This document shows positions 3,272 to 33,935 of a DNA stretch of 64,000 bases, piece after piece. Position 1 is the first letter of the stretch. Every line of letters starts with the position of its first letter. The stretch comes from a virus (Duplodnaviria; Caudoviricetes): the IMG/VR virus record IMGVR_UViG_3300032225_002400, positions 11,745 through 75,744 of that record; one strand, given 5' to 3'. Below the pieces are notes generated by a model. That model was not told where the DNA came from. It was given only the letters and a program-made list of their open reading frames with translations, and did not search any database. A program made the position numbers and the translations under genes.

Positions 3272-3274
3272 ACT

Positions 3275-12661: not shown

Positions 12662-12682
12662 TTACAATAAAACCATAAACAA

Positions 12683-13515: not shown

Positions 13516-13524
13516 AATATATTT

Positions 13525-13698: not shown

Positions 13699-13699
13699 A

Positions 13700-14008: not shown

Positions 14009-14054
14009 ATATTAAAATATTATTACTTAATTTTAATTAATAAATAAATAGTAT

Positions 14055-14315: not shown

Positions 14316-14320
14316 ATTTT

Positions 14321-14917: not shown

Positions 14918-14921
14918 ATAA

Positions 14922-15416: not shown

Positions 15417-15547
15417 TATATAAATTACTAATTTGATAATAATAAAATAATATAATAATAAAAATTTAATATTATTTTTATAATGTGTATTAAGATGGTG
15501 ATTAAGCAAATGTAGATTTTTAAAAAAAAACCAAAAAAATACAATAA

Positions 15548-16982: not shown

Positions 16983-17039
16983 TCAAAAAGTATTAATTTT
17001 AAATTATTATTGATAATTTTAAACTAAAATTCAGAATTT

Positions 17040-17150
17040 ATGAATAGTAAAGATTTAGTACCTGCATTAGTAGGGTTTGGAATTAGCTTAGTTGGTATTT
17101 ACATCATTGTAAGAGTTGCTTCAGGAGCATGGGCTTCAGGACAAAAATAA
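17040..17150 (+). CDS. 36-aa single-TM protein
   Basis: Manual translation MNSKDLVPALVGFGISLVGIYIIVRVASGAWASGQK*. Confidence 0.7.
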   Translation: MNSKDLVPALVGFGISLVGIYIIVRVASGAWASGQK

Positions 17151-17160
17151 AAATAAAATT

Positions 17161-17280
17161 ATGGCAAAAGCAACAAAAAAAATAGGTGTGGCAGATATTG
17201 CAAAGCTTGCAAAAAAAATTAGAAAACCTAATGAGAAATGGACCGATGCAATAAAAAGAGCAGCGGCACAATTAAAGTAA
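17161..17280 (+). CDS. 39-aa Lys/Ala-rich basic protein, candidate DNA-condensing core protein
   Basis: Manual translation MAKATKKIGVADIAKLAKKIRKPNEKWTDAIKRAAAQLK*. Confidence 0.65.
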   Translation: MAKATKKIGVADIAKLAKKIRKPNEKWTDAIKRAAAQLK

Positions 17281-17286
17281 TTTAAT

Positions 17287-19035: not shown

Positions 19036-19042
19036 TTAAATA

Positions 19043-19450
19043 ATGGAACAAAATATAACTTCTCAACTAACACCAGCTCCTATGGCGCCTCCCCCAGCGC
19101 CTAGTGGTGTTGCTCCTATAGCTCCTCTTCCAGTTGCAGCTCCTCCTATGGCTTCTGCACCTATGGAAGACGGTGGTGCTGTTGTTAAAAAATCAGGTGG
19201 AATAAAAGAATGGTTTAATGATATTAATATAGTTGATGTAGCTGTAAGTGCTGTTATAGTTGGTGCAATATTATACACAGTTCATTATTATAAATTTATG
19301 ATGATGTTAGAAAAATCAGGTTACGCTGATTTGAATACTAAAGTAGCTAAATTACAAAGTGCCATAGATGCTCAAAAAGCTGAAATGAACGCTGCAGGTA
19401 ATGGTAAGCTAGATAGACAACGCAGAAAACCTGTAATGAGATTAGCATAA
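19043..19450 (+). CDS. membrane protein with Pro/Ala-rich leader and MEDGG motif
   Basis: PA-rich N-terminus, MEDGG at 19163, TM VAVSAVIVGAILYTVHYY, coiled coil. Confidence 0.65.
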   Translation: MEQNITSQLTPAPMAPPPAPSGVAPIAPLPVAAPPMASAPMEDGGAVVKKSGGIKEWFNDINIVDVAVSAVIVGAILYTVHYYKFMMMLEKSGYADLNTKVAKLQSAIDAQKAEMNAAGNGKLDRQRRKPVMRLA

Positions 19451-19462
19451 AATATATCCTTT

Positions 19463-19948
19463 ATGAAACAAAATAATAAATATATAATTCTAGGTCTTTT
19501 AGCAATTGGTGGCTATTTATTGTATAGAAAATATATGAAAAATAGTTCAACACAACCTGATTCTAATGTAAATTTTTTGGGTTTAAATATCCCTCCCATT
19601 CTAAATGATTGGAAAGATAATTTTGATAATAAAAGATTAGATGAAATAACCAATAATTATACACCTGACGGTATTTTAGTGTCTACTTTTGGAGATATTC
19701 TAAAAGGTAGAAAAAATATTAAAGACTATTTCAAAGGTTTATTTGAAAAAGATAAATTAAGTGTTGATTATTTAGGTACTCCTGATGTGAAAGACTTGAA
19801 AGATGTTAAAGTATATACAGGTTTATACCAATTTAATTATTTAGAAAATGGTAAAATGAATCATGTTAAATCAAGATATTCATTCATTTCTAAAGAGATT
19901 GATGGTAAAACTTATATATTGAAACAACATTCTAGTGTTGCTAATTAA
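19463..19948 (+). CDS. TM-anchored NTF2/SnoaL-like (DUF4440/SgcJ-type) domain protein
   Basis: W.DNF...LDEI..NYTPDGILV.TF..ILKGR..IKDYF..LF; terminal HSS. Confidence 0.65.
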   Translation: MKQNNKYIILGLLAIGGYLLYRKYMKNSSTQPDSNVNFLGLNIPPILNDWKDNFDNKRLDEITNNYTPDGILVSTFGDILKGRKNIKDYFKGLFEKDKLSVDYLGTPDVKDLKDVKVYTGLYQFNYLENGKMNHVKSRYSFISKEIDGKTYILKQHSSVAN

Positions 19949-19970
19949 AAGTTAAAAAAAACCATAAAAT

Positions 19971-20618
19971 ATGTTAGATTCAATATCTTGGGGAAACCCT
20001 TTGCAAAAGCATTTGCCTTACATTGAAAAAGATAATCTTACTTTTCTTGAAAAGTATTATCCTCAATTAATCAAGTATAGTTTCCCAAAAAACACTTCAA
20101 AAGCTACAAGAGAAGAATTAAATCAACTTGTAGATAATATTGAAGTAGCTAAAGCAAACCCAGAGCATTTAAAAAGATATAAAGCTTATGATAACTCTCT
20201 TGTTAAAATATTTGGAGATGTTATTATTGATAATAATTTAGGAGAAAAAGGAGCTGATTTAGTAGATAAATTATTTGATGATACAGTCCCTTTAATATTA
20301 AAACTTAAATTTTTTTTTCAAAGACCAAGACCGTATCAATTAGCTTATGCTTATAAATTAAAACTTTTCCCATTTTCATCTCCATCTGCAGATTCTCCGT
20401 CTTATCCTGCAGGACATACTTTGCAGTCTGCATTGATTTGCTATGTGTTAGGTAATCATTTTCCTGAAAAATTTGATTATTTCCAAAATTTAGCTAAAGA
20501 TATAGAGTATAGTAGATTGTTTTTAGGTTTACATTACCAATCAGACAATGATTTTGCTCTTTACATATTTGATTTAATCATTAGAGATAAGGAATTTAAG
20601 GCTAAATATGGTTTATAA
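19971..20618 (+). CDS. PAP2-superfamily phosphatase / haloperoxidase-like
   Basis: K.FFQRPRP, SYPAGH, SRLFLGLHYQSD (C1-C2-C3 motifs). Confidence 0.85.
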   Translation: MLDSISWGNPLQKHLPYIEKDNLTFLEKYYPQLIKYSFPKNTSKATREELNQLVDNIEVAKANPEHLKRYKAYDNSLVKIFGDVIIDNNLGEKGADLVDKLFDDTVPLILKLKFFFQRPRPYQLAYAYKLKLFPFSSPSADSPSYPAGHTLQSALICYVLGNHFPEKFDYFQNLAKDIEYSRLFLGLHYQSDNDFALYIFDLIIRDKEFKAKYGL

Positions 20619-21025
20619 TGGAATTATCAGCTTCAGGCGCTTCAGTTCAACGACAGACATATAAAGGTTGGGTAACAATATCTGAGAAGAGATATTATTT
20701 AAAAAGTAAATGGGAATATAGATACGCTATGTATTTAGATTTAATGAAAAGGAATAATCATATTATAGATTGGGAGTATGAACCTAAAACTTTTTATTTT
20801 GAAGGTATTAAAAGAGGAACTACAAACTATAAACCTGATTTTAAAGTCATATTTCCATCGCAAAATGAAGAGTGGTATGAAGTTAAAGGCTTTATGGATT
20901 CTAAATCTGCTACTAAAATAAAAAGAATGGCAAAATATTTTCCAAACATAAAACTTAATGTAATAGATAAAACTTGGTTTAATAATAATTCAAAAGTATT
21001 AAAAAAGATTATTAAAAATTGGTAA
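20618..21025 (+). CDS. PD-(D/E)xK endonuclease (DUF1064-like)
   Basis: KSKWEYRYA, WEYEPKTF, YKPDF, YEVKG. Confidence 0.8.
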   Translation: MELSASGASVQRQTYKGWVTISEKRYYLKSKWEYRYAMYLDLMKRNNHIIDWEYEPKTFYFEGIKRGTTNYKPDFKVIFPSQNEEWYEVKGFMDSKSATKIKRMAKYFPNIKLNVIDKTWFNNNSKVLKKIIKNW

Positions 21026-21069
21026 TAAATTGTAATTTTAAATATATTTACTATGTTTAAAATATAATA

Positions 21070-21486
21070 ATGAGACAAAATGAAAATGTTGATTTACTTC
21101 AAAAAGTTTTAGATAGTGTATCTAGAAGAGGTTATAAAAAAACTTTAGATTTATTATCTTTTAAAATAGAAGATAATGTTGTATTAAGAAAAACTAAAGA
21201 TAAGTTAATAATAGCAGAAGTAATAAAAGCATTCAATATTAGTAAAGATGATTTATTTTTAAGCAGATATGAAAGAGGAGAATTAAAATATGCTATTGGA
21301 TTTTGTGTATATTATTTATATAAGTATAAAACTTTAGGTGAAATTTATAAAACTATATTTAAAAATAAAAATAAAGCTCAATTATCAAAATATAGACAAT
21401 TAATAGTAGAACTTAACCCAAAAATTGAACAAGATAAAAAATATATTACGTTATTAGAAAGTTTAAACGAAATAATAGAAAAATAA
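21070..21486 (+). CDS. DnaA domain IV-like HTH DNA-binding protein
   Basis: IIAEVIKAFNISKDDLFLSRYER..YYL..TLGEI resembles DnaA C-terminal domain. Confidence 0.5.
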   Translation: MRQNENVDLLQKVLDSVSRRGYKKTLDLLSFKIEDNVVLRKTKDKLIIAEVIKAFNISKDDLFLSRYERGELKYAIGFCVYYLYKYKTLGEIYKTIFKNKNKAQLSKYRQLIVELNPKIEQDKKYITLLESLNEIIEK

Positions 21487-21497
21487 AAATAAAATAA

Positions 21498-22655
21498 ATG
21501 AGTACAGAACAAAAAATAACCAATGAAGAAGTAAAACCTACTCCAACTAGTGCTAATTACAATCCTTTCATGCAACAAGTTAGTGAGAAGCCATATTCTA
21601 CTATGAATGTTGGAGTAACACAAGACCAATTAAAAGGAGCAATTCCAGAACCAGTATTTACTCCATTTACAATTGATTCTAACGAGAATCCATATAATAT
21701 GTTAGGTGGAGAAGGACAACCAAGTAGTAATTTAGGTTCAAAAAATAATTCAGCATCTTTTAATCCAATGATGAATGATATTAATGATGGAGATAAAAAG
21801 CTAGGTGCACAACACATGGCTAAATTATTGGTAGATGGTTATGAACAATTACATGTTTTTGGTAATAAAGCTTTACAAGTACCAGAAAGAAAGATTAGAA
21901 AAATGGAACAAGAAGGTCTTATTGACTTATCAATTCCAATTCCGTATGAATATGGTAAAACAATTACTGCTGGAGAGTTTTTACAAGATTTTAATGAGCA
22001 AAATAAAGATGCTTTAACAGTATCAAAAGAATTTAAAAAAGAAGTTACTCCTGTATTAACTAGAGTGTTAGAAAAAAGAGGAGCAGGTTTAACCGATGAA
22101 CAATATTTAGGTTTTTTAGTTGGTAAAGATTTAATTGTAAAATTAGTAATAGTAGCACAATTACGTTCTACTATGAATGATATGATTAATGTAATTAAAG
22201 ACTATACAGAAGCCACAAAAGCTGGAAATGGTGTAACTCCACAACCACAACAAAAAACAACTACACAACAACCAGTAACTCCAACACCTACAACATCTGA
22301 ATATCAATATCAAGAACCTAATCATTCAGCTTCTGATTTTAATTTCCAAGATAATGAAGTTGTAATGAATAGCACTGTTCAACAAATGCAAGTACCTAGC
22401 ACAGGTAAAGCAAGAGTTATTGCACAAATTCAAAAAGAAAAGAAATGGAAAAATGATTCTGATAAATCAGTTGAAAATTCATCTTACGAACAAGCAATGA
22501 AAGAAAGAAAAAATGGAAATAAAAGAGGAAGAAAACCAAAAGATTATATTCAAAATGTAAAAATAGATGAACAAGAAATTGCAGAATCAATTATATTAAA
22601 TGAATCTATTAATCAACCTAAAAAGGAAAAAGACCCTTATTCAGATTTAGATTAA
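21498..22655 (+). CDS. hypothetical protein (packaging/assembly accessory candidate)
   Basis: 385-aa ORF with helical core and low-complexity ends, two genes upstream of the ATPase. Confidence 0.5.
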   Translation: MSTEQKITNEEVKPTPTSANYNPFMQQVSEKPYSTMNVGVTQDQLKGAIPEPVFTPFTIDSNENPYNMLGGEGQPSSNLGSKNNSASFNPMMNDINDGDKKLGAQHMAKLLVDGYEQLHVFGNKALQVPERKIRKMEQEGLIDLSIPIPYEYGKTITAGEFLQDFNEQNKDALTVSKEFKKEVTPVLTRVLEKRGAGLTDEQYLGFLVGKDLIVKLVIVAQLRSTMNDMINVIKDYTEATKAGNGVTPQPQQKTTTQQPVTPTPTTSEYQYQEPNHSASDFNFQDNEVVMNSTVQQMQVPSTGKARVIAQIQKEKKWKNDSDKSVENSSYEQAMKERKNGNKRGRKPKDYIQNVKIDEQEIAESIILNESINQPKKEKDPYSDLD

Positions 22656-22656
22656 T

Positions 22657-22944
22657 ATGAAAGTTAAAAACTTACATTGGATAGAGTTTAAAAAAACAAT
22701 CATATCTTGTATTAAAATATTTGAAAAAGAATCACTTAAGTTTGAATTTCCAATTTATGATGAAGAAGATTTTACAATTCTTGTAGAAGATTGTGAGGTA
22801 TTTCCTATATTTACAAAAAAAGAAGATTTTTTAAAAGTAGAATATGATTTTACATTTTGTGAAACTTTAATTAGAACATTAAGCTTTTCAAAATATAAAG
22901 ATGCAATAAGAATAGAAGTAACTTTGAAAGATAAAAGCGTTTAG
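22657..22944 (+). CDS. hypothetical protein
   Basis: 95-aa ORF tightly packed between neighbours. Confidence 0.55.
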   Translation: MKVKNLHWIEFKKTIISCIKIFEKESLKFEFPIYDEEDFTILVEDCEVFPIFTKKEDFLKVEYDFTFCETLIRTLSFSKYKDAIRIEVTLKDKSV

Positions 22945-22945
22945 T

Positions 22946-23767
22946 ATGTCAAGAGAACCTATGTTGATGGCAGCGTGTGGAAAAAAAGGAGTTGGAAAAT
23001 CGTATCAACACATGATTTTAATGAACCAATATGTTCAAGGAGATTATTATAATGGTGTCAGAGGTAGAAAGTGTTTGATTATGGATGTCAATGATGAATA
23101 TGGTGTAGGTACTTATTATGTACAAGCTTTATCATTGAAAGATGTTCCATTATTTACAGTGCATCCACATATAGAAATAAGAAGAATTAGACCTTTTCAT
23201 CCAAATGGAACTAGAATGACGTTAGATGAATGGGCTCAAGCTTTATTTTATGTGTTAAGTAGATTTAGAAATGGTTTATTATTAATAGAAGATGTCAATA
23301 AATTTATTGGCGACCATTTACCAAATGATTTAGTAGGCTCAATTGCAACTAATAGACATATAGGTTTAGATATTATTCTATCATATCAATCTTTAGGTAG
23401 AATTAATACAAAAATATGGGGTAATTTAAACCAATTAAGGTTTCATAAAAATAATGAAAGTGTAGAAAGACATTCTTTAAAATTTCCTGATAAAGCAGAA
23501 TTTATGAGAATTGCAGAAATTATGGTTAATAATGAATACGCTAGAGGTAATAATAGATACTTTGTTTATGTAGATATGGATGAATCTAAAATTAGAGGTA
23601 ATATTAGTGATGAATTAAGAGATGAAGCTTTAAATGAATATATTAATGAAAACTACAATAATATATTAAAACCTTATTTAGTTCAAAGAAATGGAAGCAA
23701 AAAAAAGCATACTGTAGAAACTGCTATAAAAGAAGTAAAAACTAAATTAATTTCAGCTTACTTTTAG
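22946..23767 (+). CDS. A32/P9-like (FtsK-HerA superfamily) genome packaging ATPase
   Basis: Walker A GKKGVGKS, Walker B LLLIED, then TNRHIGLDIILSYQSLGRI (Arg-finger RH plus conserved Gln); 273 aa with no terminase nuclease domain. Confidence 0.85.
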   Translation: MSREPMLMAACGKKGVGKSYQHMILMNQYVQGDYYNGVRGRKCLIMDVNDEYGVGTYYVQALSLKDVPLFTVHPHIEIRRIRPFHPNGTRMTLDEWAQALFYVLSRFRNGLLLIEDVNKFIGDHLPNDLVGSIATNRHIGLDIILSYQSLGRINTKIWGNLNQLRFHKNNESVERHSLKFPDKAEFMRIAEIMVNNEYARGNNRYFVYVDMDESKIRGNISDELRDEALNEYINENYNNILKPYLVQRNGSKKKHTVETAIKEVKTKLISAYF

Positions 23768-23806
23768 TGTATTTTATTTATTATAATTAATTGAATTGCA
23801 ATATAT

Positions 23807-23853
23807 TATATTTGCAATGTTAAATCTTTTCAGTATTTTTAAATATATATTTG
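23807..23853 (+). promoter_or_regulatory. two Bacteroidota-type -7 promoter boxes upstream of capsid operon
   Basis: TATATTTGCA at 23807-23816 and TATATTTG at 23846-23853 in the intergenic region. Confidence 0.6.
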
Positions 23854-23976
23854 TTATTTAACTAAAAATAGTAATTTATTTTAATTAATAAATTTTGATT
23901 ACTTAATTTTAAACTGTCAATGCTGAATCTGTATTCACAATGGCAATTATTCATAAAACAATTAAATAGTATTAAA

Positions 23977-24084
23977 ATGAATTTCAAAGCAATCGCAGGA
24001 CAATTACTAATTGTTGCAGGTGGTGTTGCTCTTTACATGTTGGCTATAAAGCCTATGTTAGACAAAGCCAATGTAACTAAGTAA
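23977..24084 (+). CDS. 35-aa single-TM protein directly upstream of capsid gene
   Basis: Manual translation MNFKAIAGQLLIVAGGVALYMLAIKPMLDKANVTK*; C-ending codons (TTC, ATC, TAC, GCC) as in the capsid gene. Confidence 0.75.
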   Translation: MNFKAIAGQLLIVAGGVALYMLAIKPMLDKANVTK

Positions 24085-24141
24085 TTATAGAAGTAAACGA
24101 ATTGAAAATTAAATTAATTCAAAAATCAAAATTCATTAAAA

Positions 24142-24843
24142 ATGAGTAGTATTCAACGCTATTTACAAATGGCAAACCGTCAAGTAAACGAATCGTTTAT
24201 TGGCGTAGATGGTTTCGTAGACGATGACATGTATTTTGCAGCTGGAGATAATTTCTTCGGTGCAGACGGAACAGAAGCAGCTCCTGCTGCTGCAGCTCCT
24301 GCAGTTATGCGTTCTCAACCTTACATCTTAACAGTATCTAATGCTTCTAACGCGGCAGTTACTATTGATGTATTTGGAGCTTATATCTATTTGAACAACG
24401 CAGGTTTTTCAGGTGGAAGCTTAACAGTAAGCAACGTAACAATCACTTCAGGATTGTCTAACGTAACTTATTACAACTTATTGAACCAATCATCTGTATC
24501 TCCATTCACAATTGGAAGTACTTTGATTTCTTCAGTAAATGGTACAACTAGCCAAGTGTTACAACCTTTAACACTTAGTACTTTAGATGCAAATGGTAAC
24601 CAAGCAACTAAAATCTTAACTCCAGTTATTGACCCGTATCAACAACAAAGTGGTGTTATTGAATTGAAACAACCATTCAGAATTGATGGTTTTACTAAGT
24701 TAACTTTCAGCATTTATGCTTCAAGTTCAGTTCAATTCCAATTCTACCCTTCTGATACTATCAACATCGCAAGAGGTTTAGGTGGTAACGCTGTATCTAA
24801 ACAATATGGTAGTCCAAAGATTATCAGACCAGCTTCTCGTTAA
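24142..24843 (+). CDS. putative single-jelly-roll major capsid protein
   Basis: About 175-aa beta-strand-rich core after an acidic/Ala-rich N-arm; biased codon use (AAC, TTC, ATC, CGT); promoter boxes upstream and terminator downstream; follows packaging ATPase. Confidence 0.65.
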   Translation: MSSIQRYLQMANRQVNESFIGVDGFVDDDMYFAAGDNFFGADGTEAAPAAAAPAVMRSQPYILTVSNASNAAVTIDVFGAYIYLNNAGFSGGSLTVSNVTITSGLSNVTYYNLLNQSSVSPFTIGSTLISSVNGTTSQVLQPLTLSTLDANGNQATKILTPVIDPYQQQSGVIELKQPFRIDGFTKLTFSIYASSSVQFQFYPSDTINIARGLGGNAVSKQYGSPKIIRPASR

Positions 24844-24866
24844 TTCAAGAAGATTTGGGAAAATAT

Positions 24867-24912
24867 AAAAAGAGGGTGTGAGTGTGATTTTATCTTACTC
24901 CGCCCTTTTTTT
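24867..24912 (+). terminator. intrinsic terminator after capsid gene
   Basis: GGGTGTGAGT...ACTCCGCCC imperfect stem followed by 7 T. Confidence 0.7.
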
Positions 24913-24930
24913 CATTAAAATTTACAAATT

Positions 24931-25350
24931 ATGTCATTACCTAGAGTAAATATATTTAATTACACGGCAGCAGCAAATCCTTATTTTGTTAAAAGTTTAG
25001 CTCATAAATATGGTTATGAGTTTGATAAAGACCAAAAATTAGATACTGTATTGCAACAATTAGTAACTTATGAAGGTGAACCTATAATGATGGAAATAAT
25101 TGAGAATAATCCTGATAAAGATTTATTTATGGATTATTTTGAGAAAAAATATGGCAAAAAAGAAGAAAAGAATAATTCAAATGAATTAGGTGGCGCAAGA
25201 TTACTTGATACTTATATGAATTTCACAGGACAATTACAAGCTGCACAACAAACTGCTGAAAATAAAATGATAACAAAAGAAACAAGTGTTATGGTTTTAC
25301 TTGGTGCAGTACTTATTTCATTCGCAATAATGTTTAAAAATAACAAATAA
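24931..25350 (+). CDS. virion membrane protein, C-terminal TM, NFTG motif
   Basis: C-terminal VMVLLGAVLISFAIMFKNNK; YMNFTG at 25219. Confidence 0.65.
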   Translation: MSLPRVNIFNYTAAANPYFVKSLAHKYGYEFDKDQKLDTVLQQLVTYEGEPIMMEIIENNPDKDLFMDYFEKKYGKKEEKNNSNELGGARLLDTYMNFTGQLQAAQQTAENKMITKETSVMVLLGAVLISFAIMFKNNK

Positions 25351-25351
25351 T

Positions 25352-26011
25352 ATGGCACTTTCAGCAATAGAAACTGTAAAAGAATTAATTTCATACTCAG
25401 TTGTAACAGATAAAAATGGTTTAGTTAAGTTATTAGAAAGAAATGGTATTCAATTACCAAATAATCCTTCTGATAATGAAGTAACTGTTGCTGTTTTAAT
25501 GGCAAATAACAGAAGTGGTGTTTTCAGAAATGAATTAAAAAAATATTTAGGAGCATTAGTTCCAGAAGTATCTAATTACACAGTACAATTAAGTGGAGGT
25601 ATGAATTTCACTGGTACAGATGATTTTTCTTTTACTGCAGGAGATGAATTTTATAATTTAACTGCAGGTCAAGCAAAAAGAGTTACTGATACTAATCCTT
25701 CCGGGAAATCAAAAGTGGGAATAGCATTAGCTAGTATAGGTACATTTTTTAAAGATAATGTACTTACAAAAGACAATATTAATTCAGGTATACAAATTGG
25801 ATTAACTAGTTTAGCTAATAAGACTAATGCACAACAAAATGCTGTTACTGCTCAGTCTTTACAACTACAAAATTATCAAGATACTTTAAGACAACAACTT
25901 CCTAACGCTTCAAAAAAATCTAATACTATGTTATATGTATGGATTAGTGTTGGTGTTTTAGCTGTTGGTGTTTTAGGTTTTGTTTTATATAAATCATATA
26001 AAAAGAAATAA
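25352..26011 (+). CDS. virion membrane protein, C-terminal TM, NFTG motif
   Basis: MNFTGTDDFSFTAGDEF; C-terminal LYVWISVGVLAVGVLGFVLYKSYKKK. Confidence 0.65.
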   Translation: MALSAIETVKELISYSVVTDKNGLVKLLERNGIQLPNNPSDNEVTVAVLMANNRSGVFRNELKKYLGALVPEVSNYTVQLSGGMNFTGTDDFSFTAGDEFYNLTAGQAKRVTDTNPSGKSKVGIALASIGTFFKDNVLTKDNINSGIQIGLTSLANKTNAQQNAVTAQSLQLQNYQDTLRQQLPNASKKSNTMLYVWISVGVLAVGVLGFVLYKSYKKK

Positions 26012-26012
26012 T

Positions 26013-26132
26013 ATGTTAAAAGGTAAAAATTTATTGTTGTTATTAGCAATTGCAGGCGTATCTTATTATTATTTAGTATGGCAAAAAAGCGCTAAAGATA
26101 AAGAAAATGATGCTGCAAAAGCTAAAAAATAA
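26013..26132 (+). CDS. 39-aa single-TM protein (MLKGKNL family)
   Basis: Manual translation MLKGKNLLLLLAIAGVSYYYLVWQKSAKDKENDAAKAKK*. Confidence 0.75.
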   Translation: MLKGKNLLLLLAIAGVSYYYLVWQKSAKDKENDAAKAKK

Positions 26133-26136
26133 AAAA

Positions 26137-26328
26137 ATGATTAATAGTAAAAAAATATTATTAATTGGAGGTGTTTTGGTAATAGCGTATCTTTTATTAA
26201 AAAAGAAAAAAAATACTATTGTTAGTGAAAATGGAAAAGAAAAGATTTCGCAGTTTGACCCTATAAATGTTAAACCAATGCCATGGATAGGTGTTCCAAA
26301 TTCACTTACTGAAATTAAGATAAATTAA
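26137..26328 (+). CDS. N-terminal TM small protein
   Basis: Start reassigned to ATG 26137 (MINSKKILLIGGVLVIAYLLLKKKK). Confidence 0.65.
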   Translation: MINSKKILLIGGVLVIAYLLLKKKKNTIVSENGKEKISQFDPINVKPMPWIGVPNSLTEIKIN

Positions 26329-26329
26329 A

Positions 26330-26464
26330 ATGACTAAAGAGAATAAACAATTATTATTAATAGGTGGATTTATATTTGTTTTATATACACTTTATAAGAT
26401 ATATGAAAAGAAATATCAATCAGTTCCTGATTCAGTAGTAATTCCAACAGAATTTGAAAATTAA
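26330..26464 (+). CDS. 44-aa single-TM protein
   Basis: Manual translation MTKENKQLLLIGGFIFVLYTLYKIYEKKYQSVPDSVVIPTEFEN*. Confidence 0.7.
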   Translation: MTKENKQLLLIGGFIFVLYTLYKIYEKKYQSVPDSVVIPTEFEN

Positions 26465-26491
26465 ATTAAATAACAAACAAAAACTACAATT

Positions 26492-26653
26492 ATGTTAAAA
26501 GGTAAAAATTTATGGATTTTATTAGGTGTAGGTGCTGTAGCATACTATTATTTTATGATGAAAAAGAAAAAAGATGCTGCTTCTGCTGCTTCTACAACTC
26601 CTGCTGTTAAAAACTTTACAGGAGACCATGGTATTTTAGCAAAACAAAATTAA
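26492..26653 (+). CDS. 53-aa single-TM protein (MLKGKNL family, NFTG motif)
   Basis: Manual translation MLKGKNLWILLGVGAVAYYYFMMKKKKDAASAASTTPAVKNFTGDHGILAKQN*. Confidence 0.75.
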   Translation: MLKGKNLWILLGVGAVAYYYFMMKKKKDAASAASTTPAVKNFTGDHGILAKQN

Positions 26654-26676
26654 TTAGAAATTAAAAAAGTAAAAAA

Positions 26677-26928
26677 ATGTTAAAAGGTAAAAATTTATTA
26701 ATTATTGCAGGTGTTGCTGCTGTAGGTTATTATTTATATAAAAAAAATCAAGCTGCTAAAGTAATTGCTCCTTCAACTGCTGCAACTAATTTTACAGGTA
26801 ATTTAGGTGTACTTAATGCTGATGGCGCACATTTAACTGATAGACAAATTAATAGAATTGCAAACGCTAGTCCTGAAAGAGCTCAAAGAATTTATAATAG
26901 AGTTTCAAAAAGAATGGGGATTAGATAA
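26677..26928 (+). CDS. single-TM protein (MLKGKNL family, NFTG/NADG motifs)
   Basis: MLKGKNLLIIAGVAAVGYYLYKK..TNFTGNLGVLNADG. Confidence 0.75.
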   Translation: MLKGKNLLIIAGVAAVGYYLYKKNQAAKVIAPSTAATNFTGNLGVLNADGAHLTDRQINRIANASPERAQRIYNRVSKRMGIR

Positions 26929-26938
26929 AAATTAAGTT

Positions 26939-27331
26939 ATGACAACTACAAAAAAAGTACTTTTATACGCAGGGATATATATTATAGGTTATCAATTATG
27001 GAAATACTATAGTAAGCCTAAAAGCGTATTAGTAAAAGGTTCTGATGCTGACACACCTGAAAAGGTAGAATATAGCACAGGAAAAGAAGGTATGTTAGGT
27101 TCTGATGGTTCTTTAGATACAATGATTAATTTAAAGAAGCCCATCTATATTAGACCTCAAAATTCTATTCCTGATGTATATGATAGAGGTATTGGACAAT
27201 TTATTAATTGTAGTGGTGGTTATATGAACGCTTCAGGTTTTCATGAAAACTTAGCTACGGCTTGTAACGCTAGAACTGTAAAAAAACTTGGCGCTACAAA
27301 AATTGATATTCCTATAATACCTCAAAATTAA
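26939..27331 (+). CDS. N-terminal TM protein
   Basis: VLLYAGIYIIGYQLWKYY; NCSGGYMNASG. Confidence 0.6.
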   Translation: MTTTKKVLLYAGIYIIGYQLWKYYSKPKSVLVKGSDADTPEKVEYSTGKEGMLGSDGSLDTMINLKKPIYIRPQNSIPDVYDRGIGQFINCSGGYMNASGFHENLATACNARTVKKLGATKIDIPIIPQN

Positions 27332-27341
27332 AATAAAAACA

Positions 27342-27578
27342 ATGGCAGAGGCGAAAGATATATTAGATAAAGTAAAACAATTAAAATCTAATTCTGAAAG
27401 CATGGCTTTGAAGAAAATGAAAGGTACAGTTTCAGGAGCTTTAATTGGTATGGGTGGTGGCTTACTAATAGGATTTACAAGAGGCTATAATTTAGTCTCT
27501 TCTGCGTTTGTAGGAGCTTTACTTGGAGGAGTTATATCTCAAGTTTTATTACCAAAATTAGATGATAGCAATGAATAA
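27342..27578 (+). CDS. Gly-zipper 2-TM membrane protein
   Basis: GALIGMGGGLLIG / AFVGALLGGVI. Confidence 0.65.
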   Translation: MAEAKDILDKVKQLKSNSESMALKKMKGTVSGALIGMGGGLLIGFTRGYNLVSSAFVGALLGGVISQVLLPKLDDSNE

Positions 27579-28263
27579 TAAGTATATTAAATTTGCCGCT
27601 TTAGCAGCTATTACAGTAGGTGGTTACTTAGTGATTAAAAATCTATTAGGTAAATCTGTTGGAGTAACAAAACAAGTAGGTGATTCAGAAAGTGGTTTAG
27701 ATAATGGGAAAGCTGCAGTTTCTAATTACTTCCCTTTAGCTAAAGGTAGCAAAGGAGAAAAAGTTAGAGAATTGCAGACTATTTTAGTAGGTATTGATGC
27801 AAATTCACTCCCTAAATATGGTATTGATGGAGATTTTGGAAGTGAAACTGAAGCTGCTTTATTTAAGTATTTGAATAAGAAGCAAGTTGATAATCAAGAA
27901 GACATAGCTACATTAAATTCTTTAAAAACTACAGCTCAATCAAAAGCTTTAGAATCTTCAATTAATGCTAATAGAAGTATAACTGCGAATGAAATTATCA
28001 ATGATTGGAAGCTTAATAATATGAAAAATATATACGCATCTAATGATTTAGGATATGTTATTGGTAATTTATCTGCATCAGGTTTAGAATTAAATTCTGT
28101 AAATAAATTTGCTAAAAAAGGTGAAACTATAGTTAATGGTTTTGAAATAAAAGATATGAAAGTTTTACCTAGTGGTTATATTATGGCTTCTATAGGAACA
28201 GGTACTTTAGGATTAGATAGTAGATTTGCTAAATTTAGCCCTTTTGGTGTCATGATAAAGTAG
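27571..28263 (+). CDS. TM-anchored peptidoglycan-binding (PG_binding_1) protein
   Basis: LAKGSKGEKVRELQTIL..IDGDFGSETEAAL; start probably ATG 27571 rather than 27562. Confidence 0.8.
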   Translation: MNNKYIKFAALAAITVGGYLVIKNLLGKSVGVTKQVGDSESGLDNGKAAVSNYFPLAKGSKGEKVRELQTILVGIDANSLPKYGIDGDFGSETEAALFKYLNKKQVDNQEDIATLNSLKTTAQSKALESSINANRSITANEIINDWKLNNMKNIYASNDLGYVIGNLSASGLELNSVNKFAKKGETIVNGFEIKDMKVLPSGYIMASIGTGTLGLDSRFAKFSPFGVMIK

Positions 28264-28291
28264 TAATTTTAAAATAAAAAATAACCATAAA

Positions 28292-28582
28292 ATGGAAGAA
28301 ATAAATTTAGATAAAAAGCTTACTGCCAACCAACTTTTTAAAGAATATAAAGATGAAGGAGGCACATTGAATTTTTCAGATTGGTTGACTAGAGAAAAGA
28401 CAAAAGGTATTTTCCCTATAAATTTGAATCTAAATCAAGAAGTAAGTAAAAAATTAACTGATTTAAAACAAGAAGAAATGAATAAAACAGTTTTAGGTTT
28501 CCCTGTAAGCACCTTATTAATAGCAGGTGGAGTAATTATAGTAGCAATAGTTGCTGTTAATGTATTAAAAAAGAAAGCATAA
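28292..28582 (+). CDS. small protein with C-terminal TM
   Basis: C-terminal LLIAGGVIIVAIVAVNVLKKKA. Confidence 0.65.
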   Translation: MEEINLDKKLTANQLFKEYKDEGGTLNFSDWLTREKTKGIFPINLNLNQEVSKKLTDLKQEEMNKTVLGFPVSTLLIAGGVIIVAIVAVNVLKKKA

Positions 28583-28866
28583 TGAAAAAAGATAATTTTA
28601 TTTGGTGGGTATTAGGAGGCTTTGGAGCTGTTGCTCTTTGGTATTATTATCAAAATAATAAAAAGAAAAGTGTAAGTACTAAAGAGTTAGTAGTAGATGT
28701 TCTTCAAGAAGAGCAAGATAAGTATAGTACACCTTTTAAAGCTGAGTATAATATTATTATGCCTGCTGATTTAGTGTCAAAGAGAGTAAAAGAAAAGGCG
28801 GCTGTGTTAACTGCAGGTAGATATGAAATACAGCCTGATAAAGTACAAGCACCATTATTTATATAA
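28582..28866 (+). CDS. small protein with N-terminal TM
   Basis: FIWWVLGGFGAVALWYYYQ. Confidence 0.65.
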   Translation: MKKDNFIWWVLGGFGAVALWYYYQNNKKKSVSTKELVVDVLQEEQDKYSTPFKAEYNIIMPADLVSKRVKEKAAVLTAGRYEIQPDKVQAPLFI

Positions 28867-28867
28867 G

Positions 28868-29674
28868 ATGCAGTACAAATTGTGGACAAGATATGAACCA
28901 TGTATGGTTAAAGTTGTGGTAAAAACAAATTCACCTCAACTTATTGTGTTAAAGGCATTTGATGCTACACAAGCCAATACAGTTTTTATGGAAAGGGAAA
29001 AAACTATTGATGGAACGCAAGAGTTGTATGTAAGGATGCCATTATCCCCTAGTTCAACTGCTTTAGCAATTTATAATAAAAAAAATGGCAACTTGGCAAA
29101 AGGTCAAGATAGTTCTTTTGAAGTTTCTCAAATTAAAAAAGAAGATTTGGACATTACTTTAGCTAAAACTAAAATGGACAATTCTTTAGTTAGAAATTTT
29201 GTTGCTTTTGCTCAAAAGTTTGCATTTAACGCTGGTTGGATTCAAGCTCCAAAAGATTATATAAGTACAGTAGGTGCTTTTAAAATAGAATACTTACCTT
29301 ATATAACAAACAACAAAACTAATGCTAAGATGGCTACACCTGCTCGTATAAGTACCAAAAATGGTAGAATACAAGTGTCTCAGGAAGCTTTCTTACCATT
29401 TACTATACCAATGAGAATGGCAATATTATTACATGAGTTTAGTCATTTTTATTTGAATAGTGATATTTCTAATGAAACTGAAGCTGATTTGAACGGACTT
29501 ACAATTTATTTAGGATTAGGCTACCCTATCAAAGAAGCCTATTCTGCTTTTATAGATACCTTTATTGGTTATCCTACTGAGCAGAATAAAAGAAGATATG
29601 ATATAATCAATAGGTTCATTAAAGATTATATTGAAGAATATAAAATAAAAGATGTCTACGCAGTAGGCGAATAA
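28868..29674 (+). CDS. HEXXH zinc metallopeptidase (zincin)
   Basis: ILLHEFSH followed by NETEADLNGL (downstream Glu ligand); start reassigned to ATG 28868 just after upstream stop. Confidence 0.8.
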   Translation: MQYKLWTRYEPCMVKVVVKTNSPQLIVLKAFDATQANTVFMEREKTIDGTQELYVRMPLSPSSTALAIYNKKNGNLAKGQDSSFEVSQIKKEDLDITLAKTKMDNSLVRNFVAFAQKFAFNAGWIQAPKDYISTVGAFKIEYLPYITNNKTNAKMATPARISTKNGRIQVSQEAFLPFTIPMRMAILLHEFSHFYLNSDISNETEADLNGLTIYLGLGYPIKEAYSAFIDTFIGYPTEQNKRRYDIINRFIKDYIEEYKIKDVYAVGE

Positions 29675-29685
29675 AAATAAAAGTT

Positions 29686-30213
29686 ATGGCAGACAAAGGA
29701 GCACTTAGAGTTTATACAGAATTACCATCTTGGGCAAAAGGAGTAGTTGTTGTAGGTGGGCTTGTTGTAGGTTATTTAGCTGTTACATCTATTTTAAGAG
29801 CTATTAAAGCTAAAAAAACAGAGGCTGAATCAAAAGCTGAAATTTCACAAGCTAATACTGAATTAAATACTCAAATAAAATCAGGAAATGGTCCAACAAT
29901 TCAAAGAAGTCAAGCAGAAGTTATGGCTAATGCTATAGTTGCTGCTTCAAATGATTGTGGAACTGATGAAAAACAAATTTATGCTCAATTTGATAAAGTA
30001 AAAAATCAAGCTGATATATTGTTATTTGTAGAAGTTTTTGGTTTAAGAAAGAAAGTAAGATGCCCATTTAGTGATGACCCTAGAGAATCATTTTTTAGTT
30101 CAGATACTCCTCCAATGTCATTATCTGCTATGATAAATTCAGAATTAGATACTACTGAAATTCAAACTTTAAATAATAAATTAGCAACAAAAGGAATTAA
30201 ATATAAATTTTAA
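29686..30213 (+). CDS. TM-anchored protein with annexin-like GTDE repeat
   Basis: N-terminal TM; CGTDEKQIYAQFDKVKNQADILLFVEVFG. Confidence 0.5.
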   Translation: MADKGALRVYTELPSWAKGVVVVGGLVVGYLAVTSILRAIKAKKTEAESKAEISQANTELNTQIKSGNGPTIQRSQAEVMANAIVAASNDCGTDEKQIYAQFDKVKNQADILLFVEVFGLRKKVRCPFSDDPRESFFSSDTPPMSLSAMINSELDTTEIQTLNNKLATKGIKYKF

Positions 30214-30216
30214 TAT

Positions 30217-30831
30217 ATGGCACTTTTTGAATCAGAAAAAACAAGAATAACAGAAGCAAGTAATAGTTATGCACAAAAATATCCTTTAAGTGAGAATATA
30301 TCTAACTTACAAGCTAGTGTTAATGCAGCTAATGTTGATTTAGTTAGTTTAAGAAATGAACAACCTGAAACTGCTGGAGGTAAGCGTGTAAGACAAAGAA
30401 ACATTACTGCTCTATCTAATAGAATTATGCAGCTTCAAAATAAAATTAAAGATTTACAAAGTGGTATGAGTGGAAGTGATATTATTAAAATTGCTTATCC
30501 TTCTTACTCTACTCTTCCAAAAGTAACTAGTCAAACTATTTTAGGAAGTACACCATATAGCTTTCAAATACCTATGTTGAATATGCCAAATAGCGTTAAG
30601 AATATAAAAAAATCAAAACCTGCTTCAAAAACAACTGATACAAGAGATTTAGCTGACAGTATTGCAAATAACAATGGTATACCTGTTGCAGGAGAATCAA
30701 ATGGTGCTGTAGGTGATTATCCTCCTCCTTATGGAGTTCAAAATACAAATACTAAATCAATACTATTATATGGTGGTTTAGCGGCAATAGTGGGAATTAC
30801 AGCTTATTTCATGTTTATAAAGAAAAAATAA
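30217..30831 (+). CDS. helical-hairpin protein with C-terminal TM (paralog A)
   Basis: KYPLSEN..AGGKRVRQRNITAL..RI; C-terminal TM plus KKK. Confidence 0.65.
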   Translation: MALFESEKTRITEASNSYAQKYPLSENISNLQASVNAANVDLVSLRNEQPETAGGKRVRQRNITALSNRIMQLQNKIKDLQSGMSGSDIIKIAYPSYSTLPKVTSQTILGSTPYSFQIPMLNMPNSVKNIKKSKPASKTTDTRDLADSIANNNGIPVAGESNGAVGDYPPPYGVQNTNTKSILLYGGLAAIVGITAYFMFIKKK

Positions 30832-30835
30832 TTAT

Positions 30836-31300
30836 ATGGCATTATTAGGACCAACAGGAAAAAAAATAGCAATAGGAGCAGCAGTAGCAGGTGGTTTAAC
30901 ACTTGCAGGAATAGGAATTGCTAAAAACGCAGAGCAAAAAAGAGTTTTAGCTGCTGAAGATGATATGAAGAAGAAATATCCTTTTTCAGAAAATTGTCTT
31001 GAAATGCAACATATATACAAAACTGCAAAACTTACTTTAGCTCAATTAGAAGCTGAATCAGGTGGAGATGCAGGTGCTAAAAGAGTAAGAGCAAGAAATA
31101 CAGCAGCTTTAAAGAAAAGAATTATAGAACTTGAAAATTATATACCAAATTTAGATTGCTCAAAGGCAGTTTTAGCTCCTGATGGGTTACCACAAGGTGC
31201 TGTTGCTCCTGCATCTAATGTTACTAAATATTTGTTATATGGCGTTGCAGGTGTGATATTATTGGTGGTATTTTCTAACTTAATGAAGAAAAAAGACTAG
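30836..31300 (+). CDS. helical-hairpin protein with TM segments (paralog B)
   Basis: KYPFSEN..AGAKRVRARNTAAL..RI; N- and C-terminal hydrophobic segments. Confidence 0.65.
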   Translation: MALLGPTGKKIAIGAAVAGGLTLAGIGIAKNAEQKRVLAAEDDMKKKYPFSENCLEMQHIYKTAKLTLAQLEAESGGDAGAKRVRARNTAALKKRIIELENYIPNLDCSKAVLAPDGLPQGAVAPASNVTKYLLYGVAGVILLVVFSNLMKKKD

Positions 31301-31302
31301 TT

Positions 31303-31977
31303 ATGGCAATAGACATGATTGAAAATAATGAGCTTGGTGCCCTTGCAAAAAGCAGATTAGGTGATACTAAGCAGTTTACTAATGAAAACCAAAAGTATAA
31401 AAACTTCTCAGGTAATGAGGATGTTTTTCAAAGAGTAGACATTAATGAAGAGTTTGAAAACCTTTTTGGAAGTAAAACATTCAAAGATAATAAAGCAAAA
31501 GCTACTAAAGAAGCTGAAGATTTTGTTGCAGCTTTACCAAAAGGTAATTGTGATGATATTGAGAAAAGCTTGGGAAAACTTGCTTTATATATTGAAGCTC
31601 AAACAAAAGAATTAGGATTAGCTAAAGGCCATGTTACAGAATACCCTAAAAATAGATTAACAGTAGCTAGAAAAGCAGAAGCTGATTTAAAAATGACTCA
31701 ATCTAATTTAGATTGTTTAAATATACAAGCTAAAGCACAATCTGAAGCTAAAAAAGCTGAATTGATAAAGACTTTAACTAATGTTTCAGAAGCTAGTGTT
31801 CAACAAGCGAAAACAGACCTTTTTGGTACTCCTACAGGACAACCTTTGTACGCACCTGCTACAACTGACCAAGGAGCATTAAGTTCTGTTCAAAATGCTC
31901 TTGTTTCTAACAAAAATTTATTAATTTATGGTGGTATTGGAGTAATTGTATTAATTTTATTATTAAGAAGAGATTAA
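31303..31977 (+). CDS. helical protein with C-terminal TM, NFSG motif (distant paralog C)
   Basis: KNFSG at 31402; C..SNLDC like paralog B; C-terminal LLIYGGIGVIVLILLLRRD. Confidence 0.6.
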   Translation: MAIDMIENNELGALAKSRLGDTKQFTNENQKYKNFSGNEDVFQRVDINEEFENLFGSKTFKDNKAKATKEAEDFVAALPKGNCDDIEKSLGKLALYIEAQTKELGLAKGHVTEYPKNRLTVARKAEADLKMTQSNLDCLNIQAKAQSEAKKAELIKTLTNVSEASVQQAKTDLFGTPTGQPLYAPATTDQGALSSVQNALVSNKNLLIYGGIGVIVLILLLRRD

Positions 31978-31979
31978 GA

Positions 31980-32468
31980 ATGAAATATTTAAAACCTGCA
32001 TTAATAATTAGTGGACTTGGCATAATTGGTTATGCCCTTTTCCGTTATTATAAGAAGCAAATAGACTTTGTAAAAGATATTCAATATACCATTTCAGGGT
32101 TAAAAATAGTAAACATTTCAAAAGAAGATGTTACACTTGAAATATTTTTAAAAGTTTATAACGCATCAAATGTAGAAGCTAAAGTAACTGAGATTTATTT
32201 AGATGTTATGATGAATGGCACTAAAGTAGGTTCTATAAATGAATCAAATGAGTTTACAATTATGCCAACACAGACTACTGATGTAAGCTATAAATTTAGT
32301 TTTAATCCAAGTTTAGTAATAAAAAATATTGTTAATATTTTAACTTTAACTGTTCAATTGAAAGATGTTGTAATAGTAGCAGATGGGTATATGAAAGTAA
32401 AAAGTGGTTTTTTATCAACAACAATTCCATTTACATATCAAAACACATTAAAAAAACTTTTAAAATAA
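31980..32468 (+). CDS. LEA_2 (WHy) domain protein with N-terminal TM
   Basis: TM then beta-sandwich pattern LEIFLKVYNASN..LDVMMNGTKVGS..IMP..T.V. Confidence 0.75.
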   Translation: MKYLKPALIISGLGIIGYALFRYYKKQIDFVKDIQYTISGLKIVNISKEDVTLEIFLKVYNASNVEAKVTEIYLDVMMNGTKVGSINESNEFTIMPTQTTDVSYKFSFNPSLVIKNIVNILTLTVQLKDVVIVADGYMKVKSGFLSTTIPFTYQNTLKKLLK

Positions 32469-33182: not shown

Positions 33183-33935
33183 ATGAGTAGTACATTTTTA
33201 GGAGGAGATAGTTTTAGTTTATTTAGTGGTGGCTCAGGAGGAGGCACTAGTGGAGTTGTTGGTTCTAGTGGAACTAGCGGTCAAACTTATGGAACTAGTG
33301 GAACTAGTGGTCAAGGTACAAGTGGAACAAGTGCAACAAGCGGCACAACAGGTACAAGTGGAGTAACAGGAACTTCAGGCTTAACAGGAACTTCAGGAAC
33401 AAGCGGTGTAACAGGCACAAGCGGAACAAGTGGCGTAACAGGAACTTCAGGAACAAGTGGTATGGGAACAAGTGGTACAAGTGGCTCTTCAGGTTCTAGT
33501 GGAAATGGTACTGCAGGAACAAGTGGTGGAACAGGTACGGCAGGTACTAGTGGAGTAAGTGCTGCAGGAACAATAAAAAATTATCAAGTAGTAATAGCTA
33601 CATCAAATGGTTCTTTAAGTAGTGTAACAAGTGCAACTGACCCTGTTGGAGCAAATCTAATAGGTGCTGCAGGATGGACATTCACCATAGATAGTAGTAC
33701 TCAATTTACTATAACACATCCTTTAGGAAATGTTTTTATTAGTGCTTTTACTAATGGTTTAAATGGTTCTAATGTTCTTACAAGAACTTTTTCAGGAAAT
33801 ACAACAGGAAACTATAGTATGTTTCAAAATAGTACTTTTACATCTATCATTTTTTATAGTTTATCAGGTACATTAGCAGGATATGCAACAGTTGGTTTAG
33901 GTACTTTAACAATTAATTTTCAAGCAAAAGTTTAA
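33183..33935 (+). CDS. short fibre with collagen-like G-T-S repeats and C-terminal beta domain
   Basis: Over 100 residues of mostly Gly-X-Y (GTS/GSS/GTA) triplets, then about 120-aa beta-rich head. Confidence 0.75.
   Translation: MSSTFLGGDSFSLFSGGSGGGTSGVVGSSGTSGQTYGTSGTSGQGTSGTSATSGTTGTSGVTGTSGLTGTSGTSGVTGTSGTSGVTGTSGTSGMGTSGTSGSSGSSGNGTAGTSGGTGTAGTSGVSAAGTIKNYQVVIATSNGSLSSVTSATDPVGANLIGAAGWTFTIDSSTQFTITHPLGNVFISAFTNGLNGSNVLTRTFSGNTTGNYSMFQNSTFTSIIFYSLSGTLAGYATVGLGTLTINFQAKV

Follow-up and report, generated by a model that had tools for sequence, protein, structure and literature searches.

A short linear peptide motif connects the N-terminal arm of a probable major shell protein with about eight families of membrane proteins in a 64,000-nucleotide stretch of viral DNA (hereafter, the window), which comprises bases 11745–75744 of the 75.7-kb IMG/VR viral contig IMGVR_UViG_3300032225_002400 (~29% G+C; rated 66% complete). 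The source is a large uncultured virus of bacteria that apparently has no tail. Written out more fully, the motif reads [ED]-x-[FY]-x-N-[AFM]-[STDN]-G; a subtype of acidic/aromatic character reads F-T-G-x-D-D-F. The motif is real and conserved, is confined to the shell arm and these membrane-protein families, is disordered in the shell-protein model and is portable. We tentatively regard it as a portable short linear assembly or docking peptide, by which the membrane proteins, perhaps along with a fibre, would be tethered to the lattice of the shell or to a common hub.

A motif shared by the arm of a probable shell protein and membrane proteins

The original prediction, made from the letters of the window, had proposed that an NF(T/S)G/FxAGDxF motif links the capsid N-arm to many proteins anchored by transmembrane (TM) helices. 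All of the strings that it quoted were found in their places (NFTG at 25219, 25604, 26612 and 26788; NFSG at 31402; NFLG at 19571; PFTG at 15327), and the variants NADG, NASG and NAAG were located at 26815, 27227 and 19388, respectively. F.AGD.F had just two occurrences, one in the capsid arm (24235) and one in the 25352 protein (25631; proteins are named here by the first base of their genes). NFTG occurred four times in 20,538 amino acids (aa), all inside 2 kb, versus ~0.3 occurrences expected from composition. Since two of its carriers, the 26492 and 26677 proteins, are paralogs, these copies represent three independent genes, plus NFSG at 31402. Matches to N[AF][ATSD]G were concentrated in the genes at 13.5–34 kb (8 in their 8,104 aa versus 1 in 12,434 aa elsewhere; Fisher P=0.003). 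Enrichment was only ~2-fold (20 versus 10.5±3.3) for N[AF].G, the loosest form, and some of the listed instances may therefore be noise. Codon choice varied among the instances and the flanking DNA was unrelated; the repeat thus lies at the peptide level, and a DNA repeat or gene conversion was ruled out on the same grounds. The refined patterns were defined after the data had been viewed, and the statistical weight rests on a pre-specified pattern in independent loci, on flanks outside the search pattern and on the controls of the arm profile described below.

The relatives comprised 14 close loci and 35 independent, more distant loci, in which the shell protein is ~50–55% identical. Orthologs in the close loci held the motif in place while its flanks drifted. 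The distant loci (807 de-duplicated proteins) contained 51 matches to N[FA][TSDA]G versus 13.9±3.6 in within-protein shuffles (z=10), and 31 of these patterns, versus 7.1 after shuffling, were found in their TM proteins; enrichment over expectation is thus seen in independent relatives as well as in the window. Among 80 independent matches to the wider class N[AFM][STDNGA]G, the residue two before Asn was Phe or Tyr in 50, and positions -4 and -3 were mainly acidic, Gly or Asn, all of these being positions that the search had left free. No conservation was found beyond Gly, and the logo spans -4 to Gly. The motif as first proposed had to be redefined: Asn is replaceable by Gly or Asp in some families, and the upstream aromatic and acidic residues belong to the motif. 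The FxAGDxF element represents the F-T-G-x-D-D-F subtype.

A profile of the arm alone (residues 17–46 of 99 shell proteins) was searched against the 1,612 non-shell proteins of all loci. It matched 29 non-capsid proteins at E<1, versus 2 in a reversed database and 0 in a shuffled one, with the best match (4e-3) being a 25352 ortholog. All 29 matches fell on motif-type segments of TM-anchored or small membrane-cluster proteins. Twenty-four belonged to the 25352, 28292, 26492/26677, 24931 and 26939 families, and the remaining five are small and lack an ortholog in the window; two of these come from a C-terminal-TM family. The central claim of the original prediction, that one short linear code connects the capsid N-arm with many membrane proteins, is borne out by this enrichment and by its retention in relatives; its further statement, that the copies sit in linkers of TM-anchored proteins, is true of the main instances.

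The arm of the probable shell protein and other carriers of the motif

The probable shell protein and the motif copies in its arm are as follows.

24142–24843, + strand: probable major shell protein, 233 aa, with a helix (residues 3–17), a disordered motif arm (residues 17–46), an Ala/Pro linker and a single jelly roll (residues 56–225)
24190–24213, + strand: arm motif copy 1, E-S-F-I-G-V-D-G, a degenerate E-x-F-x-N-A-D-G; the family consensus here is N-E-N-[YF]-x-N-A-D-G-F
24232–24270, + strand: central element of the arm, Y-F-A-A-G-D-N-F-F, overlapping copy 2, F-F-G-A-D-G; relatives have F-T-G-[AG]-D-D-F-F-N-A-D-G

An AlphaFold2 (AF2) model of this protein, built from a 99-sequence alignment, had a predicted local distance difference test score (pLDDT) of 87.4, with residues 19–43, the motif region, below 50. 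The best structural matches of the modelled sandwich were viral jelly rolls, all weak: the capsid of grapevine fanleaf virus (GFLV; Z 5.9) and chain O of PR772 (Z 5.7), followed by FLiP and PM2 proteins (Z 4.6). Foldseek gave E ~1e-3 to comovirus and satellite-virus capsids. This weak fold match (best Z 5.9) and the gene context make it plausible that 24142 encodes the capsid or major shell protein; other shell-protein candidates (HK97 or double jelly roll) were searched for only via PF05065. The family has 564 cluster representatives at E≤0.001 in a 50%-identity library of public metagenomes.

The motif copies in the arm of the window's own protein are degenerate versions. In the arms of 99 diverse family members, NADG, GADG, SADG and ADGF predominate, with 1–3 copies in most; a loose pattern gave 150 matches in these arms versus 21±4 in shuffled arms, and at least one copy was present in 82 of the 99. 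At ~50% identity, the arm consists of the helix, N-E-N-Y-x-N-A-D-G-F-x-D-x-D, x-F-T-G-G-x-D-F-F, N-A-D-G and a short linker leading to the jelly roll. This layout is stereotyped: the first copy starts at median residue 21 (interquartile range 20–24), and the last one ends ~10 aa before the jelly roll.

Some other jelly-roll proteins of the lineage lack the arm. A 223-aa protein encoded at 49658–50329 shows a weak similarity (E=8.4e-4, residues 95–206) to the jelly roll of 24142 but has no motif arm; it is possibly a second shell or vertex protein, and its gene is followed by that of an 800-aa protein with no family match. A 102-kb relative rated 100% complete possesses, at L016 7247–7711 and 9824–11017 and at L035 10001–10696, an arm-bearing shell gene and two arm-less jelly-roll paralogs, one of which is 397 aa long and was matched twice by the domain. 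These paralogs are encoded ~40 kb from the shell gene, in a region without TM-protein genes. As a separate matter, the 24142–24843 jelly roll is rich in N-x-S/T triplets (N-A-S, N-V-T twice, N-Q-S and N-G-T), and no fewer than seven glycosyltransferase-like genes lie in the genome. The shell might conceivably be glycosylated, independently of the motif studied here.

Outside the shell protein, the following instances were found.

15327–15416, + strand: portable module that forms the C-terminal tail of the 14931 protein and begins P-F-T-G-F-S-E-E-N-Y-W
19388–19399, + strand: N-A-A-G (E-M-N-A-A-G) in membrane protein 19043–19450; E-[MV]-N-A-[AS]-G in 12 close loci
19571–19582, + strand: N-F-L-G in the 19463 protein; a weak, unverified instance with an ortholog in only one near-identical locus
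25213–25230, + strand: Y-M-N-F-T-G in tail-anchored protein 24931–25350, ~16–20 aa before the C-terminal TM helix
25604–25669, + strand: N-F-T-G-T-D-D-F-S-F-T-A-G-D-E-F-Y-N-L-T-A-G in the 25352–26011 protein; a capsid-arm mimic (arm-profile E=0.08)
26612–26623, + strand: N-F-T-G in the 53-aa protein 26492–26653, which consists of an N-terminal TM helix, a Lys cluster, an Ala/Ser/Thr/Pro linker and the motif
26788–26826, + strand: N-F-T-G and N-A-D-G, 9 aa apart, in 26677–26928, the paralog of 26492
27227–27238, + strand: N-A-S-G (Y-M-N-A-S-G-F) in the 26939–27331 protein; [YF]-[MI]-N-A-[TSA]-G in 9 of 10 unique orthologs
31402–31428, + strand: N-F-S-G-N-E-D-V-F near the N-terminus of tail-anchored protein 31303–31977
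33192–33224, + strand: T-F-L-G-G-D-S-F-S-L-F at the N-terminus of the collagen-like fibre 33183–33935; a possible member of the F-T-G subtype

A census across 47 loci, counted as unique sequences with the motif, gave the following numbers.

Shell protein: 30 of 42
24931 family: 33 of 40
26939 family: 9 of 10
26492/26677 family: 23 of 48
25352 family: 19 of 63
19043 family: 15 of 39
31303 family: 8 of 17
28292 family: 5 of 36
One further TM family: 5 of 15

In the same loci the motif was absent from the ATPase (0 of 42), from the zincin (0 of 37) and from the 21070, 21498, PAP2 and 27342 families. The 12011 glucosaminidase, the sole soluble family that always matched, was a false positive, with its match lying within the enzyme fold.

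The families differ in how the motif is embedded. The linker of the 24931 family is hypervariable, with insertions and deletions, and the motif is its one conserved island, kept as Y-M-N-F-[TS]-G-Q in the 14 close relatives, where the 26939 family has [YF]-M-N-A-[TSA]-G. The 25352 segment has a three-part arrangement identical to that of the capsid arm; F-T-G-x-D-D-[FY] is invariant in all 15 orthologs, down to 40% identity, and the fuller form in this family is F-T-G-x-D-D-[FY]-x-F-[TV]-[GA]-x-[DE]-x-[FY]. Orthologs of 31303 keep F-[STAV]-[GA]-x-[ED]-[ED]-x-[FY] to 31% identity, while distant orthologs of 19043 have E-E-F-D-N-M-[ST]-G adjoining a TM helix instead. Relatives of 26492/26677 carry two or three tandem copies, and mini-proteins of 46–90 aa comprise only a TM anchor, a Lys cluster, an Ala/Ser/Thr/Pro linker and the motif. 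In distant relatives, several tail-anchored proteins start with arm-like regions holding two to four copies.

Two terminal modules recur on unrelated proteins. The tail of the 14931 protein, x-F-T-G-F-S-E-E-N-Y-W-N-D-x-F..., hardly varies between the two unrelated bodies on which it occurs. One is multi-TM and 161 aa long; the other, of ~150 aa, has its TM helix at the N-terminus and bears the tail in four loci (L003, L005, L006 and L009) and in 40 database proteins. The N-terminus of fibre 33183 (M-S-S-x-F-L-G-x-D-x-F-x-F) also opens a fibre of 628 aa in L007 and L008 that is wholly different from it. Such portability between bodies is usual for virion-attachment modules, for example, the N-termini of fibres.

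A different pattern is found within the membrane anchors themselves. A dozen proteins encoded at 12515–32468 have a common TM-helix pattern, [KN]-[KN]-x-L-L-[IL]-x-G-G-(hydrophobic run)-Y, placed either at the N-terminus or at the C-terminus and then followed by a Lys/Arg tail; this looks like a second shared code.

Docking, cleavage and other proposed explanations of the motif

In the docking model that we tentatively favour, the shell protein would expose one to three copies of the peptide on its disordered arm, between the N-terminal helix and the jelly roll, and about eight families of virion membrane proteins would present the same peptide on flexible linkers. Charge patterns, the only basis used here for orientation, suggest that these linkers probably face the cytoplasmic, shell-facing side of the membrane. 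All copies would bind one common site, either the underside of the shell lattice, where the arms would engage their neighbours, or a shared hub protein; the membrane proteins would thereby mimic the shell arm, tethering the shell to the membrane and setting it in register, and the fibre may attach in the same way. With its order of residues (aromatic, x, Asn, small, polar, Gly, often with an aromatic to follow), the peptide would suit a tight turn or a hairpin added to the edge of a beta-sheet. We favour docking because the peptide is disordered, multivalent with variable copy number, and portable, even to the N-terminus of a fibre, and because it is the sole recognisable feature of the mini-proteins beside their TM anchors. 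The variable number of tandem copies (1–3 in arms and up to 3 in small TM proteins) would suit binding by avidity. The stereotyped layout of the arms, the enrichment and conservation in independent relatives and the retrieval of membrane-protein segments by the arm profile also speak for docking.

Given that the shell protein's own arm carries the motif, arm mimicry is the simplest model of such docking. According to this more specific proposal, which we consider possible but rather unlikely in its full form, the membrane proteins, and perhaps the fibres, carry the shell arm peptide and would insert it where the arms themselves engage the lattice. A single motif of eight residues would then govern both the entry of proteins into the particle and the registration of the shell on the membrane.

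Several points weigh against docking. We infer the binding partner, the topology and the role of 24142 as the major shell protein: no partner was found, the topology is read from charge patterns only and the fold scores of the shell protein are weak (Z below 6). The one-sided logo, from -4 to Gly, resembles a protease site cut after Gly, and a conserved peptidase is encoded within the same gene cluster. In addition, a fibre on the outside and arms on the inside could hardly share a receptor, unless the fibre is anchored at a vertex.

The other function named in the original prediction, that of a maturation cleavage site, is doubtful but is the strongest rival, and docking and cleavage are not mutually exclusive. 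It supposes that a viral protease cuts after Gly, so that the shell arm would be removed or trimmed and domains of the membrane proteins would be released or clipped. The most likely enzyme would be the following one.

28868–29674, + strand: zincin (H-E-F-S-H), candidate protease, with an N-terminal beta-sandwich and an M48-like catalytic domain

The AF2 model of the zincin had a pLDDT of 90.6. Its C-terminal domain was nearest to BepA (6sar, Z 7.3 over 124 aa) and to 3c37 (Z 6.6), scores below the level that the tool regards as clear, whereas its N-terminal sandwich resembled carbohydrate-binding and GOLD-like modules (Z ~7.9). H189, E190 and H193 are invariant, as are the downstream E203 and E205, and the protein has no Pfam match. 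The gene truly begins at 28868, the start shared by all orthologs, rather than at the upstream ATG (28823).

The restriction of the consensus to -4 to Gly, with no preference past Gly, is what a site cut after Gly might look like, and a conserved H-E-x-x-H zincin of M48-like fold (BepA, Z 7.3), itself without the motif, lies in the membrane-protein cluster of 43 loci. M48 enzymes typically act on membrane proteins. Moreover, G-G-Y-M-A-D-G-G sites in giant open reading frames (ORFs) of the window are close to the G-G-Y-M-N-A-S-G of the 26939 protein. The positions of the motif, however, fit cutting poorly: some copies lie at extreme termini (residues 4–14 of the fibre; 9–30 aa from C-termini), tandem copies 7–12 aa apart would yield only tiny peptides, and portable terminal modules suit binding better than cutting. 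The arm-less jelly-roll paralogs start at the fold boundary and not at a motif. As to the enzyme, Pfam searches of 60 further proteins turned up neither adenain nor C39 nor any other family of proteases.

The giant ORFs themselves (3541–11457; 1001, 620 and 1007 aa) hold 26 [MLFYI]-x-x-G-G sites, mostly M-[AEK]-[KDE]-G-G and sometimes doubled as G-G-Y-M-A-x-G-G, with DUF5661 and DUF5824 domains inside the ORFs. The M-x-x-G-G sites look like polyprotein junctions. A literature search found no papers on DUF5661 or DUF5824.

Known systems offer parallels to both proposals. In PRD1, P16 and P30 lie between the jelly-roll shell and the internal membrane, and a role in capsomer registration has been proposed for them. 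The nearest functional precedent comes from PM2, whose membrane proteins P3 and P6 are proposed templates for capsomer registration on the membrane (PMC6356626). In the window an ATPase gene, the shell gene and a series of small TM genes follow one another, much as in PM2 and PRD1, but no sequence similarity was found, and here the genome is 76–102 kb and the shell protein is of single-jelly-roll size. To our knowledge, no linear motif shared by the shell arm and the membrane proteins has been described for PM2 or PRD1. Encapsulin cargo-loading peptides, the capsid-targeting sequence of T4 and the adenovirus fibre-tail/penton-base motif are likewise short, disordered, often terminal, portable and shell-directing. 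These systems differ in that their shells enclose no membrane and the shell protein itself lacks the targeting motif, whereas here the particle would contain a membrane, the shell arm carries the motif and it extends across about eight membrane-protein families.

On the side of cleavage, the adenovirus protease processes several precursors at one consensus, and the likeness lies in a single Gly-ending consensus common to shell-associated and internal proteins of a jelly-roll virus; in the window, neighbouring ORFs carry M-x-x-G-G sites. The difference is that the motif has Asn at -3 and an aromatic residue at -5 from Gly and lacks Gly-Gly, and that no C5 cysteine protease was detected, only the zincin. 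Adenain sites proper, (M/I/L)XGG-X and (M/I/L)XGX-G, were rejected, as they are unmatched by the consensus [FY]-x-N-[AFM]-[STDN]-G; only the separate M-x-x-G-G motif resembles them. Nodavirus and tetravirus autoproteolysis (N|A, N|F) similarly involves Asn followed by Ala or Phe in a jelly-roll capsid protein, but at single, buried, structured sites where Asn is essential, in contrast to the multiple, disordered copies with replaceable Asn in many proteins here. Asn-dependent autoproteolysis of the capsid was rejected on the basis of these multiple copies and of the change of Asn to Gly or Asp in the window's arm and in orthologs.

How a shell finds a lipid vesicle and registers on it has, for internal-membrane viruses such as PRD1, PM2 and the giant viruses, been approached only through structures of a few cultured viruses. 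Here a simple code in the sequence seems to mark those that take part, yielding about eight candidate families of shell–membrane linkers, a defined peptide and one candidate protease. As a docking code, it would open shell–membrane registration to direct tests with peptides. As a cleavage code, it would point to maturation driven by a zincin in a phage that contains a membrane, of which we have seen no description. Either way, the motif is a useful annotation marker for virion proteins in these genomes.

Considerably less probable than cleavage is that the motif binds a host factor, such as a chaperone, an insertase or an organiser of membrane domains, or that its aromatic residues let it self-associate and form a cohesive layer. 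In either case, shell and membrane proteins would be gathered in one place for assembly, and no viral receptor dedicated to them would be needed. The aromatic-plus-Gly, FG-like composition, the multivalency and the disorder of the peptide agree with this idea, and no viral receptor was found. The motif is, however, specific to this virus lineage; sequence data alone hardly separate this idea from docking.

It is very improbable that the motif is a modification site, either an N-x-S/T sequon or a Ser/Thr target of viral glycosyltransferases. N-F-T, N-F-S, N-A-S and N-A-T do fit N-x-S/T, and GT1-, GT2-, GT9- and GT25-type transferases are encoded in the genome. However, position +2 was Ser or Thr in only 41 of the 80 independent matches, the rest being Asp, Asn, Gly or Ala, and Asn gives way to Gly, Asp, Pro, Ala or Ser in sequences that retain F-T-G or A-D-G, as in the capsid, 25352 and 14931 families; this composition and these substitutions largely rule out an N-glycosylation sequon. 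Chance, arising from an Asn/Phe/Thr/Gly-rich composition or from recent paralogy, can point to the mere 2-fold enrichment of N[AF].G in the window and to the paralogy of 26492 and 26677 but has almost no probability left, being refuted by the enrichment in independent relatives (z=10), the conserved flanks that were not searched, the confinement of matches to families, the reversed and shuffled controls (0–2 matches), and the differing codons and DNA flanks.

Two further candidates were rejected. An LPXTG/sortase signal does not agree with the positions of the motif, 16–170 aa from C-terminal TM helices or after N-terminal ones, and an EF-hand or DxDxDG calcium loop was a misfit in spacing on by-eye alignment. 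The LPXTG_anchor model did score 13.8 bits, versus a cut-off of 15.9, on a different segment of the 25352 protein. This segment is the C-terminus (25895–26011), where L-P-N-A-S, a TM helix and K-S-Y-K-K-K follow one another, and the score probably reflects a generic resemblance to tail anchors.

Genome setting and lineage

The genes at 13.5–34 kb run in the same direction and are closely packed. The order is a P-loop ATPase gene (22946), a gene for a 54-aa TM peptide, the gene for the 233-aa beta-rich protein (24142) and genes for ~20 small single-TM proteins, followed by the zincin gene (28868) and then by the collagen-like (33183) and S74-chaperone (33943) fibre genes. The TM proteins clustered beside the shell gene number ~20 at 19–32 kb. 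This context is likely, though not proven, to be that of the shell protein of a tailless membrane-containing virus. The ATPase gene is as follows.

22946–23767, + strand: P-loop ATPase upstream of the shell gene, with a Walker A motif; weak AAA_22 and Zot-like matches only; present in 47 loci

The ATPase had no Pfam match to Pox_A32 (PF04665) and no sequence match in the PDB, and its class is inferred. Terminase_6N (PF03237) and HK97-capsid (PF05065), the only two families searched for in this way, drew no Pfam match in any of five records, namely the present one and four relatives, of which two are rated 90% and 100% complete.

The lineage, with genomes of 76–102 kb, and the motif were not described in the literature searched. 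Neither the DNA nor the proteins of the region, including the shell protein and the ATPase, had a match in the phage GenBank collection. Salisaeta phage SSIP-1 matched neither the shell-protein profile nor the arm profile nor the ATPase, and the motif was not enriched in it. Likewise, Pfam, PHROGs and NCBIfam held no family for the shell protein, the 24931, 25352 and 31303 proteins or the zincin. The sole match in the cellular-genome set was a 17-kb contig (L018, CAUYTX010000366.1) in a metagenome-assembled genome labelled 'Gammaproteobacteria bacterium'; the 15.8 kb fetched are collinear, gene for gene, with the membrane-protein cluster of the window, and the shell protein is 97% identical to the window's. 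This contig is probably mis-binned viral DNA and hence no evidence of a host.

The remainder of the contig contains phage-type genes, encoding RecT, a T4-like DNA glucosyltransferase, a thymidylate-synthase family enzyme, MazG, a GH19 lysozyme and glucosaminidases. Bases 1–11800 of the contig (L017), upstream of the window, encode a T4-type DNA alpha-glucosyltransferase, a thymidylate-synthase-family enzyme, MazG and DUF932; this gene set suggests modified DNA, perhaps with glucosylated hydroxymethyl-pyrimidine.

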